Assembly (NCBI GenBank): GCA_951406725.2
Contig: OX597824.1
Span: forward strand, 67,828,001 to 67,892,000
Length of the DNA: 64,000 nt
Source of the DNA: Octopus vulgaris
Taxonomy: Eukaryota
Direction of reading: 5' to 3'
Both the position numbers and the translations under genes were made by a program. The notes below the pieces were generated by a model. The model made no database searches and was not told where the DNA came from. It saw nothing but the letters and a program-made list of their open reading frames with translations. This document shows, piece after piece, positions 44,722 to 60,508 of this stretch; position 1 is the first letter of the stretch; every line of letters begins with the position of its first letter.

Positions 44722-44786
44722 AGATAAATTTTAATTTTACATGTTTCGGTCCTTGAAAAAACGAACCTTATCAAAAAAATTTATTA
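44722..44786 (-). ncRNA. Type I hammerhead in pLTR, U3:A8 variant (second copy ~49310-49372)
   Basis: Minus strand TTGATAA (44768-44774), stem II GGTTC/GGACC, GAAA, palindromic CATG, TA; AT-rich stem I. Confidence 0.65.
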
Positions 44787-45711
44787 TAAAAAGTATAATG
44801 GAACAGTTCATAATCGTTACATACATTCAATAGAATCCATGTTCTTGAAAAGACGAACCTTATCAAATATATTATAAAGAGTATAATAGAAAAATCCATA
44901 GTCGTTCCTTACTGTTTTGTCGAGTGTAGTGGAGAAGTTCATTATAGATTTCTTGCTGGTATCAAAAGGAACCGCTTTTATGTTACCTTGTGTTCCAATG
45001 GAAGCAACAGTAGTGATTCTTGGTCGTCGTCTGTTGGTCGTAATTTTGGTAACCTTGGTGGTGGTTGGGGTTATATCAGCTAAGCTGTGGCTGTGACAGC
45101 AGCAGTAGCCGTAGTAAAGGGCTGTTGATCGTAGTAGCAACAGTGGTCGGTTCTCTGGCACTGTTCAGTGACGTCACATAATTCCAAACCAATCAAAACC
45201 AAACTTCAACGAATATAAGGAAAAGACCCATAACTGTATCCTGTAAGGAAACCAACGAAGCAAGCAGGACGACAAGCTTGACCACGGAAGAAAAACGTCA
45301 TCAATTTTTTAACGAATCAAAATCAGATCTGACCCATAACTGTATCTTGTAAGGAAACCAACCAAGCAGAACAAGCTTGACCACGGAGGCAAAACGTCAT
45401 CAATTTTTTAACGAATCAAAATCAGATCTGCTCGCAGAGAAAAAATCTTTTTATAAATTCATCTTTCCCTAAGACCAGCAGGAGTGACTGCAGGAGTGAC
45501 TGTTTAAGGATCTGAGAAATTGTAATTCCCCCACCTCCACTATTTTAATTCTCTCACTGTGGCCGTAGCAGCAGTAGTAGCAGTAGGGGGCTGTTGATCG
45601 TAGCAGCAATAGTAGTGATCACGGTGGTTGTAGTAGTAGTGCTAGTGGGAGCAGTCGTAGTGGTTGTGGTAGAATTTCATTTTTCTTTTTCGGAAGACCA
45701 ATGTTTTGTTT

Positions 45712-48006
45712 TAATATTCCTGGCCCAGGGTGTTTAAACTTGGTCTAAATTTTTTGATGAAATAAAGTTCTTAATTTTGGCATTGAGTGAAGGTTACGCT
45801 GTCACTGAATTTGTAAAGTGGGTAAGTTGTAAATTTCGGATTTTCATTTGCAGTACATCTATCTATGTGTCCGCTGACCGGTATTTTCCGGTATTCAGGG
45901 TTTCTAATTTGTGATTTATGCACCGCCATCCTTTTACGTAAGCTATTTTTTGTATGGCCTATATACTGCCTATTGCAGCCTGCGCATGTTAAGACGTAAA
46001 TTAAGTTTTCTGATGCACAGGTGAAGTTTGTTCTAATGGTGAACTGATGGCCTTGTTCTAGTATAAATTCTGAACCTTCTACCAAGATGACACAGATTCC
46101 GCAGTTGGGCCTTCCACATTTTCTAACTGCTGGTTTTGTGGTTGATGTTGAGTGCAGTTTAGCTTGGGTTAAAATCCTTTTCAAGGATTTTGGTTGCCAT
46201 TTACTTTTAATGATGGTGTGTGTTTCGAGGATCCGGTTCATCTGTGGGTCTCTCTTTAGTAGGGCTGTGCTTTGTAGTATGGTGCTGAAGGCCTCATTGT
46301 TAAGTGGGTTGTGTGTAGAGATGTAGGGAAGGGTTTTTAATTGTTCTTTCTTTTTTGGTTTTGTTTGTCTCAGGTCTTCTATACTTAATTTAAGTGCCCG
46401 TTGGATTGCACTGTCTATTAGGGGATGTGGATAGTTTCTATTTATGAGTGTGGTTCCAAGTTCCTGGAGACGTGTGTCGTGTGTTTGTGTCTGATATTAT
46501 GGTGCAAATCCTTCTAGCTAAACAAAAAGGGACATTTATTCTAGTGTGTTGTGAGTGGCATGAATCAAAGCGTAGGTACTGTTTGGAGTCTGTCGGTTTA
46601 TAATAGATATCTGTCTCTATTTTGTTGCCGGTTTTCTTAATGAGGATGTCTAAAAATGGTAATTCTTCTTCGTTATGATCCATCGTGAATTGTATATTAT
46701 CATTTATTCCATTTAATAGTATTTTAAATTCCTCAAGTTTCTCTATACTTTTATCCCAGAGGATAAAACAGTTGTCGAGGTATCTTTTCCAGTTGTTCTG
46801 GATATAGGTGGAGAAGGTGTTTCCATATTTCTCGAGTGTTATCTGGTAGGGTATTTTCTCGAGGTATCCCATCACTAGGTTGGCAAAAGAAGGCGCAGTA
46901 CGCGTGCCCATCGCTGTTCCCCGTCTTTGTCTGTAGAAATTATTGTCAAAAATAAAGTAATTGTTTTCTAAAATAAATCTAAGTCCTTCTATTATAAGAT
47001 CTTTGTTTATGCGAGTTGGGAGTTCAAAGGAGTAGTTATTCAGCCAGAAGGTGATCGCTTCTATTCCTAGGGTGTGAGGGATGTTAGAATAAAGGTTAAC
47101 TACGTCGAAGGATACTAGAAGGGTTTTCTCATTGACTGTTTTAGGGAGGTGGTTGAGCATGTCTATATCGTCTCTTACGTAGCTTTTGATGTGTTTTAGG
47201 AAAGGTTTAAGAAGTGTGTCTAAGAAATTGCTGAGGCGGTGAGTTTCACATGCTGGCCCTGCTATTATCGGTCTAAGTTTAAGATCATTTGGTGAAGGGA
47301 TTTTGATGAGTATATCGGTAGATGTTTTGCATGTTTCACTAATTATTTGGCTTTTGTGTACTTTAGGGATACCGTAGAACAAACTCGATTTGCACTTGAA
47401 GTTAGTGATGTATTCATACTCCTTGTCCGTGAGTCCTTCTCGGTATGTGTTGATTAATGTCCTGAGGTTATACATTATTTTTTGCTGATTATACTGTTGG
47501 GCCCTTTCATAATACGTTTCATCTCCTAATAGGGATAGCACTAAATTTTTATAATCGTTTGTATTCATTAATACTACCGCGTTGCCCTTATCTGCCTCCT
47601 TAATTGTTATTGTTTTATCTTCTCTTAGTTTGATGTGGTCGTTCCATTCTCTTTTGTTAAAGTTTGGGCTGTGTTTTTGTTTCTTGGTGAATTGAAAAGG
47701 GAAATTAGTTATGTAGTCACAATAGCGGTCTAAGGCTTTATTCTTTCCCTTGGTAGGGGTGTAATTGCTGTTGTTTCTAGCTATTGATTCATCATCTATT
47801 TGTTTGCCATGAAATTCTTCGGTAAGTCTTAGTTTCCTACAAAATTCCGAAATATCATCTTTCATTTCATAGTAATTAAAACGTTGTGGGTTTGGTGTAA
47901 ATTTAAGTCCTTTGGAGAGTATGCTTATTTCGTTAGGTGTAAGTTCTTTGTTTGAGAGATTGATTATTTTAATTACCTGAGGTTTCTTTTGTTTGTCTTT
48001 TGCCAT
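45712..48006 (-). pseudogene. PLE RT + GIY-YIG endonuclease ORF (ORF2), disrupted
   Basis: ORF 46438-48006 joins 45771-46241 via a frameshift near 46475 (continues RLQELGTTLINRNYP...). Premature TAA at 45771 precedes ELYFIKKFRPSLN. YxDD reads YLDN. Confidence 0.88.
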
Positions 48007-58533: not shown

Positions 58534-59258
58534 TAGAAAATAGTAAAAAGTGAAAAAACTACAGAAGGCTTGTTTTAAAAGATTAAAAAATATATTTGAG
58601 TCATTATATCAGAAGAATGTTATAAAATATTTTCATATAGTGACATAGATTTTGAAGAAATTACCGGTTTCGTGTTAACTTTTCAAATTTCTCAAAACAT
58701 CGTGTTATGACTTCGTTATGAAGTGTAAAGTAGAGTTCCAGGTAAGGGGAGGTAATAAGTGATTTCTTCCGGTGTAAGGGAGATAATCGCCTTATATTTC
58801 TTGCTTCTTTTACTTAATGGGGTGAGTTTCTCTGTATAAGAATGTTAGAGTGGTTAAGTTTGGGCTTATATTTTTCAATGTGCTATTGGAACACCAACAC
58901 AAATTAGACTAAACAAGGAAACATTCTTCATCAAACTTAACCACTCTAACATTCTTATACAGAGAAACTCACCCCATTAAGTAAAAGAGGCAAGAAATAT
59001 AAAGCGATTATCTCCCTTACACCGGAAGAAATCACTTATTACCTCCCTTTACCTGGAACTCTACTTTACACTTCATAACGAAGTCATAACACGATGTTTT
59101 GAGAAATTTGAAAAGTTAACACGAAACCGGTAATTTCTTCAAAAACTATGTCACTGTATGAAAATATTTTATAACATTCTTCTGACATAATGACTCAAAT
59201 ATATTTTTTTACCTTTTAAAACAAGCCTTCTGTAGTTTTTCACTTTTTACTATTTTCT
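58534..59258. mobile_element. Penelope-derived foldback (~325-bp arms), hammerhead in each arm
   Basis: 58534-58862 is the reverse complement of 58932-59258. The spacer encodes PLE endonuclease C-terminal remnants (IRLNKETFFI on plus, IEKYKPKLN on minus). Hammerhead GAGAAAT-TTGAAAA-GTtaacAC-GAAA-CCGG-TA-ATTTCTT at 59101-59139. Confidence 0.85.
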
Positions 59259-60235
59259 CTCTCTCTCTCTCTCTATATATATATATATATAAAAGGTAAA
59301 GACCCCCTTCGGTCATGAATGACCATGGGATTGCACCTAGAAAGTTATCCTCCTAGACACAAGTCTGGGCAAGGTTGTTTATGGAAGGCCAGCAGTCGCC
59401 CATGCATACCAGCCTCCCCTCTCCACGCCACCCGTGTTATCCAAGGGAAAGACAAAGGTCGATACAGCTTGGCACCAGTGACGTCGCAGCTCATTTCTAC
59501 AGCTGAGTGAACTGGAGCAACGTGAAATAAAGTGCCTTGCTCGAGAACACAACACGCAGCCCGGTCCGGGATTCGAGCTCACAACCGTAATCTCGACGCT
59601 CTAACCACTGAGCCATATATATATATATATATATATATATATATATATATATATATATATATATATATATATATATATATATATATATATATATATATAT
59701 ATATATATATAGCCTCAGGGCGACCAAAGCTTTTTGAGTAGATTTCGTACACAGAAACTGAAAGGAGACTCTCATATATATGTCTATATTTGCATTTGTC
59801 TCTGTTTTCTTCCCTGCATTGCATAACAACCGATTTTGCTGTGTTTACGTTACTATAATCTAGAGTTTCGACGAAAGACACCGATAGAATAAGTCCTAGG
59901 CTTACAAAGAATGAAGCCTGTGGTCGATTTGTTCCACCGTATGTGGTGCTTCAGCTTGGTCGCATTTAGATGACTGAAACAAGTAAAGGAATACCATTTT
60001 AATACTGTGCGAGGCCGGGTGTCTCAGCTAGTCTATATATATATATATATATATATATATATATATATATATATATATATGTATGTATATATATATATAT
60101 ATATATATATATATATATATATGTATGTATGTATATATGTATATATATATATATTATATATATATATATATATATATATATATATATATATATATATATA
60201 TATGTATAAGGGTGAAAAGGAACACACGAGTTGAT

Positions 60236-60508
60236 ATATATGAAAAAACAAATCAAAATAGAAAATGGTAAAATAATTTTATAAAGAACATTTCAGTACC
60301 GGTTTCGGTCATTTTGAGACCTTTTCAACTGTAACGATTAAATAATTAAATTTAGAAAAATTAGGAGAAAAGTTTTCTTCTAATTTTTCTAAATTTAATT
60401 ATTTAATCGTTACAGTTGAAAAGGTCTCAAAATGACCGAAACCGGTACTGAAATGTTCTTTATAAAATTATTTTAGCATTTTCTATTTTGACTTGTTTTT
60501 TCATATAT
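60236..60508. mobile_element. Spacer-less foldback (~135-bp arms), hammerhead in each arm
   Basis: Palindrome centred ~60371 between (TA)n tracts. CAG-TTGAAAA-GGTC-tcaaaat-GACC-GAAA-CCGG-TA-CTG at 60413-60450; mirror ~60293-60330. Confidence 0.88.

Follow-up and report, generated by a model that had tools for sequence, protein, structure and literature searches.

U3:A8 hammerhead motifs at the ends of Penelope-like elements and in a related tandem-repeat retrozyme family in a genomic window of Octopus vulgaris

Small hammerhead ribozyme variants of Penelope-like elements (PLEs) have been described with a palindromic stem III and cleavage as dimers (review PMC6765202). A natural covariation replacing the C3-G8 pair of the hammerhead core by U3-A8 was described by Perreault 2011 (PMC3088659), where its in vitro activity is credited to Przybilski and Hammann 2007, and in the Cercyon PLEs of Schistosoma mansoni about 1,300 U3-A8 matches were reported beside about 2,000 C3-G8 matches (Cervera and De la Pena 2014, PMC4209133). 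A PLE origin has been proposed for the non-LTR (long terminal repeat) retrozymes (Li, Clavereau and Pollet 2026, bioRxiv 10.64898/2026.07.22.740005). Here we analyse a stretch of 64,000 nt of Octopus vulgaris (assembly GCA_951406725.2, contig OX597824.1, positions 67,828,001 to 67,892,000), hereafter the window, which has a GC content of 34% and is rich in inverted repeats; all coordinates are positions in it. The small PLE hammerhead variants are reportedly also the subject, going by its title, of a paper by Lunse, Weinberg and Breaker (RNA Biol 14:1499) on cleavage as dimers. Our literature search for octopus hammerheads yielded nothing relevant. An earlier reading of the window, made from the sequence alone, had proposed that U3:A8 hammerheads recur in unrelated elements and may be the dominant form in this genome. 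According to our analysis its core is largely confirmed, since minimal type-I motifs with U3:A8 in place of C3:G8 are found at the ends of one PLE clade and in a related non-coding tandem repeat, and the elements are neither unrelated nor is the U3:A8 form dominant.

The heptamers named by the sequence-only reading were all found by direct check exactly where it had placed them, that is, at 44774-44768, 49360-49354 and 58196-58190 on the minus strand, at 34825-34831 on the plus strand, and at 59108-59114 and 60416-60422 on the plus strand with mirrors at 58686 and 60328 on the minus strand. A structural scan of the whole window, in which any base was allowed at positions 3 and 8, the spacer could measure 0 to 6 nt and the stems were obligatory, returned six well-formed motifs, all of them U3:A8 (44774, 58196, 58686 and 60328 on the minus strand, 59108 and 60416 on the plus strand), and four chance-like rows near 3725 (3687-3728). 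The 49354 copy drops out of structural scans because the second pair of its stem II is broken. The motifs, of which the first two lie in pseudo-long terminal repeats (pLTRs), are as follows.

44724-44784, minus strand: type-I hammerhead motif with its U3:A8 core at 44774-44768; stem I has 3 proximal bp plus distal pairing, stem II has 5 bp and the palindrome is CATG; cleavage predicted 3' of A17 (44738)
49310-49370, minus strand: the same motif in the other pLTR, lying 4,586 nt upstream, with the second pair of stem II broken; A17 predicted at 49324
58159-58204, minus strand: U3:A8 motif, the best-formed one; stem I has 8 bp, stem II has 4 bp and the palindrome is CGCG; cleavage predicted 3' of C17 (58167)
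59101-59139, plus strand: U3:A8 motif, 7-bp stem I, 2-bp stem II, CCGG palindrome, A17 at 59132
58655-58693, minus strand: mirror of the 59108 motif, A17 at 58662
60413-60450, plus strand: U3:A8 motif, 3-bp proximal stem I, 4-bp stem II, CCGG palindrome, A17 at 60447
60294-60331, minus strand: mirror of the 60416 motif, A17 at 60297

The type-I core (U4-G5-A6-N7, A9, G12-A13-A14-A15 and U16-H17) is present in the six well-formed copies, the heptamer and GAAA are also kept at 49354 and 34825, and the Watson-Crick pair between positions 3 and 8 is U3:A8 in every named copy, so that none of them has the strict C3 and G8 of the Rfam hammerhead consensus. Stems I, II and III follow one another in type-I order, with breaks in stem II at 49354 and in stems I and III at 34825. 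Stems II and III had been described as pairing and, outside the weak 34825 copy, palindromic, respectively; this description stands except for the broken pair at 49354 and for the stem III of the 34825 copy, which is 5 nt long and non-palindromic. Stem I, absent from the earlier description, closes the motifs with 8 bp at 58196, 7 bp at 59108/58686 and 3 proximal bp at 44774 and 60416/60328, and additional distal pairing appears in predicted folds. That standard models overlook such motifs was borne out: 58130-58240 gave no hammerhead match at E<=10 against all 4,227 Rfam families, and a Rfam scan of the whole window gave, among the 150 of 225 rows listed, repeat-driven matches, mostly to microRNA families, and no hammerhead. 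The proposed PLE-type character, a minimal type-I motif with a palindromic stem III suited to dimer cleavage, also held up. When two copies of the 58196 motif are co-folded, the minimum-energy structure (-38.9 kcal/mol, against 2 x -16.4 for the monomers) is a double hammerhead whose stem III forms between the two molecules over 6 bp; within a single copy, no stable stem III is predicted to be possible.

Two further features of the window resemble parts of the motif. Each pLTR holds a partial upstream duplicate (44841-44912 and 49457-49523, 80% identical) with the heptamer and the 5' half of stem II and without GAAA. In the palindrome 17293-18490, a half core at 17328 (plus strand) and 18455 (minus strand) consists of a U3:A8 heptamer, a 3-bp stem II and GAAA, with no recognisable stem III or I; its family has 116 genomic matches vs 0 in the control. 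This half core may have degenerated from a complete motif, or a repeat may resemble one by chance.

The pLTR motifs belong to a full-length PLE, and the 59108 and 60416 motifs with their mirrors belong to paired PLE 3' ends, as detailed below (RT, reverse transcriptase; EN, endonuclease; ORF, open reading frame).

44691-49873, minus strand: full-length EN-containing (EN+) PLE, pLTR-ORF1-RT-GIY-YIG-pLTR, frames broken, inserted in a (TA)n tract
44691-45262, minus strand: 3' pLTR, 94% identical to 49277-49873
45774-46496, minus strand: GIY-YIG endonuclease region, with CX4CxxC linker and CCHH motif read in translation (PF01541, E 1.4e-05, over the cut-off)
46441-48054, minus strand: PLE reverse transcriptase region (PF00078, E 1.7e-05, under the cut-off)
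48293-49300, minus strand: upstream open frame, 336 aa from stop to stop, no Pfam match
49277-49873, minus strand: 5' pLTR
58535-59258, both strands: two PLE 3' ends placed head to head, each strand with one motif, of a family found 3' of RT/GIY-YIG ORFs in loci L065 and L069 (U:A) and L064, L066, L067, L071 and L072 (U:G subfamily)
60242-60502, both strands: two PLE 3' ends placed head to head, each strand with one motif, of a family found 3' of RT/GIY-YIG in locus L062

By translation and alignment, the window element has the C-terminal GIY-YIG domain, the CCHH motif and the CX2-5CxxC linker of EN+ PLEs, the last two being traits of the Neptune and Nematis clades (Craig 2021). Its (TA)n target is seen directly, as a neighbouring duplicate, 94-97% identical, has a plain empty (TA)n tract at the PLE site. 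That duplicate is part of a tandem segmental duplication in which 12373-64000 of the window corresponds, about 60-63 kb away and at 93-97% identity, to G000:C11:67904000-67954900 (loci L308-L310); it is without the PLE and about 80 bp adjoining it, and keeps only one arm of the 60242-60502 palindrome.

Elsewhere in the genome, motifs of these families stand just 3' of RT and GIY-YIG ORFs in nine of the ten long loci examined (L062-L067, L069, L071, L072), and in the tenth (L070) a (TA)n tract separates the RT from a C3:G8 motif. Across three other motif families, protein identity to the window element amounts to 55-67% in RT and about 50-65% in EN; between families with endonucleases 50-63% identical, stems I and II vary and the core is unchanged. 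The three PLE contexts of the window are therefore sister families of one clade with stems I and II remodelled around a fixed core, and U3:A8 would have arisen in them once and not three times. The claim of five contexts without similarity in unrelated elements does not survive: the 44768, 59108 and 60416 families lie 3' of homologous RT/GIY-YIG ORFs and end one PLE clade, and the 34825 copy is a decayed relative within the retrozyme family of the 58190 copy. The 44774 family makes up most of the 100 matches listed among 1,349. In the U3:G8 PLE subfamily (L064, L066, L067, L071, L072), whose copies are 94-99% alike, one base is missing at the cleavage site; L064 keeps an unbroken RT frame, and its EN is 98% identical to that of a U:A sister.

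The DNA upstream of other motif families held mostly no PLE ORF, with RT matches in 2 of 20 loci. An abundant U3:A8 family with the sequence GTTGC lies beside a distant endonuclease-like ORF in only 3 of 30 loci, one of them the query's own, and this ORF has no Pfam match; on both grounds we rejected the tie. Other, distant endonuclease-like ORFs, which have no GIY-YIG Pfam match, are followed on their 3' side by C3:G8 motifs (6 of 30 and 8 of 20 loci). A young PLE-like family with long open frames (L231, L235, L241), whose motif lies 3' of an endonuclease-like ORF, has C for A at position 9 of the core in 2 of the 13 loci listed and a further change in a third; in 9 of the 13, (TA)n is reached before the motif.

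The remaining motifs of the window belong to a retrozyme clade.

57998-58427, both strands: member of a retrozyme family of 361-nt tandem repeats, inserted between (TA)n tracts in truncated and inverted form, tail on one arm, 96-97% identical to monomers of array L061
34633-34860, plus strand: decayed copy of the 58190 retrozyme clade, U3:A8 core at 34825, stems III and I damaged (blastn to L179, L185, L186)
9893-10194, minus strand: decayed retrozyme-clade palindrome, C3:G8 core at 10064-10058, beyond the coordinates of the sequence-only reading

The list of that reading had overlooked the decayed C3:G8 copy at 10064. Array L061 consists of head-to-tail, non-coding units of 360-362 nt with one hammerhead motif per unit, and further arrays occur elsewhere; short non-coding head-to-tail repeats with one hammerhead each are typical of non-LTR retrozymes. 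Outside the core, homology to the U3:A8 monomer extends to an array family with C3:G8 (L040, L068), the global score being 137 and the scores of 500 shuffles 78 +/- 12 with a maximum of 120. Runs X11, X17 and X18, from three studies and carrying no RNA record, each contain a 392-nt monomer contig; the ends of the X11 contig overlap by about 30 nt, which gives a 362-nt cycle, a hint of a circle that a tandem array in DNA would produce just as well. The monomer is also covered in four runs assumed to be RNA, by contigs that show neither ends nor strand nor level.

For the genome-wide tabulation, 2.8 Gb in 227 contigs were searched, with the reversed pattern as control. Counts are copies and not events, and cover cores with U3 or C3 and spacers of 2 or 4 nt, the mismatch classes with the 4-nt spacer only; the excess figures are rough because the control pattern lacks the CpG of the real one. 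A pattern made up, in this order, of the U3:A8 core, GAAA, CSSG as spacer and UH gave 13,679 matches vs 347 in the control (39-fold), and the same pattern gave 539 vs 318 for C:G, 586 vs 284 for U:G and 462 vs 196 for C:A. With G10.1-C11.1 and a free 4-nt spacer, matches and controls were 19,695 and 5,309 for U:A, 7,120 and 1,408 for C:G, 4,075 and 3,327 for U:G, and 4,192 and 2,341 for C:A, that is, an excess of 14,386, 5,712, 748 and 1,851, respectively, in a like-for-like pattern. Positions 3 and 8 covary genome-wide, as the excess of the matched pairs lies well above that of the mismatches; in this tabulation, chosen beforehand as the one that could refute the proposal, U:G and C:A are not as frequent as U:A. 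Stem I, which provides an independent test because it is not in the search patterns, showed at least three contiguous pairs in 47 of 60 loci vs 6.4% of 2,734 cross-family flank pairings, the 60 loci being the first listed (L001-L030 and L079-L108) of two U3:A8 searches. In 58 of the same 60 the spacer is palindromic, a figure partly built in, as the patterns fix C..G and restrict the middle two bases.

Dominance of U3:A8 in the genome was suggested by our first table, based on the CSSG spacer (25:1 for U:A), and was rejected as the product of a biased pattern, taken from the window, once general 4-nt and 2-nt spacers had been counted. With a 2-nt spacer, C3:G8 gave 25,425 matches vs 1,387 in the control and U3:A8 11,682 vs 5,163. 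Summed over non-overlapping classes, the excess is about 21,100 for U3:A8 and between 24,000 and about 29,700 for C3:G8, so that U3:A8 dominates only the CSSG-palindrome class and makes up roughly 42-47% of the motifs counted; its true share is probably lower because C3:G8 motifs with U11.1 are mostly uncounted. Rfam Hammerhead_1 was unusable for counting copies, with only 73 candidates scored on the genome and 6 matches. A C3:G8 hammerhead family with an insertion of about 70 nt in stem II (L074, L075, L078) passes the cut-off of this model.

Within the retrozyme clade all four 3:8 states occur. A clade-specific pattern, with controls of 0, found 2,824 U:A, 308 U:G, 123 C:G and 78 C:A copies (total 3,333), with L061, L134/L135, L040/L068 and L133 as respective representatives. 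The mismatched copies are amplified subfamilies and not scattered decay: about 96 of the 100 U:G rows listed (of 308) form one subfamily, and among the 78 C:A rows a single motif recurs unchanged 24 times, on 10 contigs, a tandem trimer included. An unrooted tree was built from 63 copies hand-picked to cover the states and not at random, with positions 3 and 8 excluded. L032, one L134 match of another family and exact duplicates were left out of all trees; this tree and a quick tree including the 10064 copy also exclude copies whose downstream part is <90 nt and, among the tandem C:G copies, two in every three, and L170 is absent from the quick tree only. In the 63-copy tree C3:G8 falls into two lineages, a single C3:G8 clade being rejected (p-AU 8e-26), and the quick tree needs three C:G changes; a single origin, entertained earlier, was dropped once more rows had placed C3:G8 in separate lineages. 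A young C3:G8 group is nested among U3:A8 rows as sister to the C:A subfamily (99/96). Deep lineages are mostly matched at 3:8 and the two largest mismatched subfamilies sit on short branches; one older lineage (L138, L139, L147) was sampled mainly as C:A. The pair has likely switched between U:A and C:G more than once, at least twice by this tree, and probably through mismatched intermediates with a single change. The simplest order is U:A to C:A to C:G, the alternative being C:G to C:A through CpG decay of G8. On balance the evidence neither favours nor disfavours a stronger view, by which this one clade preserves a stepwise compensatory switch of the core pair (in one lineage from U3:A8 through C3:A8 to C3:G8, in another from U3:A8 to U3:G8) with each step multiplied in the genome. 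It would then be a natural four-state series in near-identical backgrounds, suited to asking whether cleavage by the ribozyme drives spread and circular-RNA output in Penelope-dependent elements, and surveys based on the consensus would undercount animal retrozymes many-fold in such genomes (123 C:G among 3,333). The new detail is a repeat family that has all four states and has likely switched the pair repeatedly, the U3:A8 core itself being already published; we found no publication on such a series in one retrozyme clade, as far as the main texts go, and these families may figure in the supplements of Cervera 2014/2020 and Craig 2021.

Starting from the observed sequence, stems, genomic context, relatedness and copy numbers of the motifs and the (TA)n target of the window PLE, we consider it likely that these minimal U3:A8 hammerheads, at the ends of one PLE clade and in the related non-coding 360-nt tandem repeat, cleave slowly as dimers to release unit-length RNA, which is likely circularised and likely copied into (TA)n by the PLE protein. 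Two tandem motifs would pair through the 6-bp stem III palindrome and be cut 3' of H17, the partners in cis being tandem retrozyme units or the two pLTRs of a full PLE, 4,586 nt apart. The unit-length RNA freed in this way could be closed by ligation, and the PLE RT/GIY-YIG protein, which may mobilise PLEs and retrozymes alike, could reverse-transcribe the circle into (TA)n tracts; release, circularisation and insertion follow the published model (Cervera 2014; review PMC6765202). The window's PLE clade would have inherited the U:A pair once, under long-term selection for a Watson-Crick 3:8 pair with U:G and C:A tolerated for a time. The mirror copies were rejected as dimer partners, since they lie on opposite strands and cannot act as such in one transcript; read-through RNA over them is predicted to bury the motifs in a long hairpin, and for these two reasons the inverted insertions, like most dispersed copies, are probably inert. 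Enrichment over controls, the independent stem I, the core fixed between families with differing stems, the rarity of mismatches, the double-hammerhead co-fold, the 360-362-nt arrays, the empty (TA)n site and the published U3-A8 cores, natural and active in vitro (Perreault 2011) and present in PLEs (Cervera 2014), favour this mechanism.

Several points weigh against it. Self-cleavage is predicted only. In a pairwise scan of one type-III hammerhead, strong rescue was reported only for G3:C8, other double mutants there being low (Roberts 2023, PMC9901934), and PLE minimal hammerheads were found to cleave weakly even as dimers (Cervera 2014, PMC4209133). For an anole PLE, catalytic mutants of the hammerhead left in vitro insertion unaffected, and the cut site coincided with the end of no RNA-seq read (PMC11167929). 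Our counts overstate covariation, since they treat related copies within a family as independent, and the 392-nt cyclic contig can derive from a tandem DNA array. The U:G and C:A subfamilies were amplified despite their mismatch, and the U:G PLE subfamily with an unbroken RT frame is also one base short at the cut site. Selection on the 3:8 pair, as proposed by the sequence-only reading, agrees with the covariation, and these subfamilies qualify its strictness.

Because of this published counter-evidence and the amplified mismatched subfamilies, cleavage may be dispensable for spread. We regard it as unlikely, and yet worth keeping in view, that the motif, derived from a hammerhead, persists chiefly because its folded RNA offers the PLE protein a handle or serves expression, with cleavage marginal or dispensable and any pair or near-pair at 3:8 sufficient. 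The mismatched subfamilies, some of them in tandem arrays, fit such a role, as do the U:G PLEs that lack a base at the cut site despite an EN 98% identical to that of their U:A sister, the older lineage sampled mainly as C:A, the anole mutations without effect on in vitro insertion (PMC11167929) and the spread of Naiad PLEs without canonical hammerheads (Craig 2021). It accounts poorly, however, for an entire catalytic core, beyond the stems, fixed across families 40-50% diverged in protein, and for a retrozyme clade whose deep lineages are mostly matched, whose two largest mismatched subfamilies are on short branches and whose C3:G8 copies fall into separate lineages. Mutational decay of C3:G8 in an AT-rich genome, fixed by chance in a few master copies so that covariation is a founder effect, seems very improbable to us. 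Both changes are transitions toward A/T, G8 follows C7 (a CpG) in some families, and the three PLE families of the window share one ancestor and hence one event; decay would nevertheless leave mismatches, which are far rarer than U:A, other core positions have not drifted, a young C3:G8 clade is nested in U3:A8 lineages contrary to the AT bias, and U3:A8 is also found in a further family, the one for which 3 of 30 loci gave a link with a distant endonuclease-like ORF. Chance matches, conceivable in palindromic DNA of 34% GC that yields chance-like rows at 3687-3728, are refuted by the 39-fold CSSG excess, the retrozyme pattern (2,824 vs 0) and the stem I test, to which the fixed position 3' of PLE ORFs is added, and retain next to no probability.

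As the U3:A8 core was already known, our finding is not a new ribozyme class. Two points would matter if they hold. One is scale: CUGANGA searches miss about two-fifths of the hammerhead-like motifs in our counts and 85% of one retrozyme clade. The other is that the role of PLE hammerheads would become testable, as both matched and mismatched cores occur in subfamilies that differ by a few percent. Even without engineered mutants, cleavage rate could then be compared with copy number, with the formation of arrays and with the level of circular RNA.

The window holds several features besides the motifs. An open frame at 10814-11173 (plus strand) has a weak match to the sugar/major facilitator superfamily (MFS) transporter family PF00083 (E 4e-04, under the cut-off) and is possibly a host gene exon; it is adjoined by an 88% repeat (10519-10783 and 11500-11763). 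The inverted pair 41420-42405 / 52751-53778 (83%) has no Pfam match at 1e-3, and its frame presumably resembles a Tc1-type transposase. A 69-bp tandem array with open frames occupies 21879-22345, and non-LTR RT-like fragments are found at 5271-6395 and 63555-63959.

Compared with known systems, the compensatory pair is the one of Perreault 2011 (PMC3088659), there a rare variant in several examples and here a lineage trait in tens of thousands of copies. With the Cercyon PLEs (PMC4209133) the octopus elements share a type-I minimal motif in pLTRs, U3-A8, a palindromic stem III, mostly single dispersed copies and motif pairs on opposite strands 100-700 bp apart, and in both U3-A8 is a large minority, with about 1,300 motifs beside about 2,000 in Schistosoma and about 21,000 beside at least 24,000 in the octopus genome. 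They differ from Cercyon in belonging to EN+ PLEs with a CX4CxxC linker and a (TA)n target, in having mostly a 4-nt palindrome and a short stem II, in being more than 10 times as numerous and in occurring also in tandem retrozymes. PLE association and a palindromic stem III suited to dimers are likewise traits of the small PLE variants (PMC6765202). Like the non-LTR retrozymes of animals (PMC7229834; bioRxiv 10.64898/2026.07.22.740005), the repeats described here are non-coding tandem monomers of 350-390 nt with one type-I hammerhead each, as in mussel, with PLE-like inverted insertions and monomers far outnumbering arrays; unlike the non-LTR retrozymes described, they have U3:A8 as the main core (2,824 of 3,333), accompanied by U:G, C:G and C:A subfamilies.

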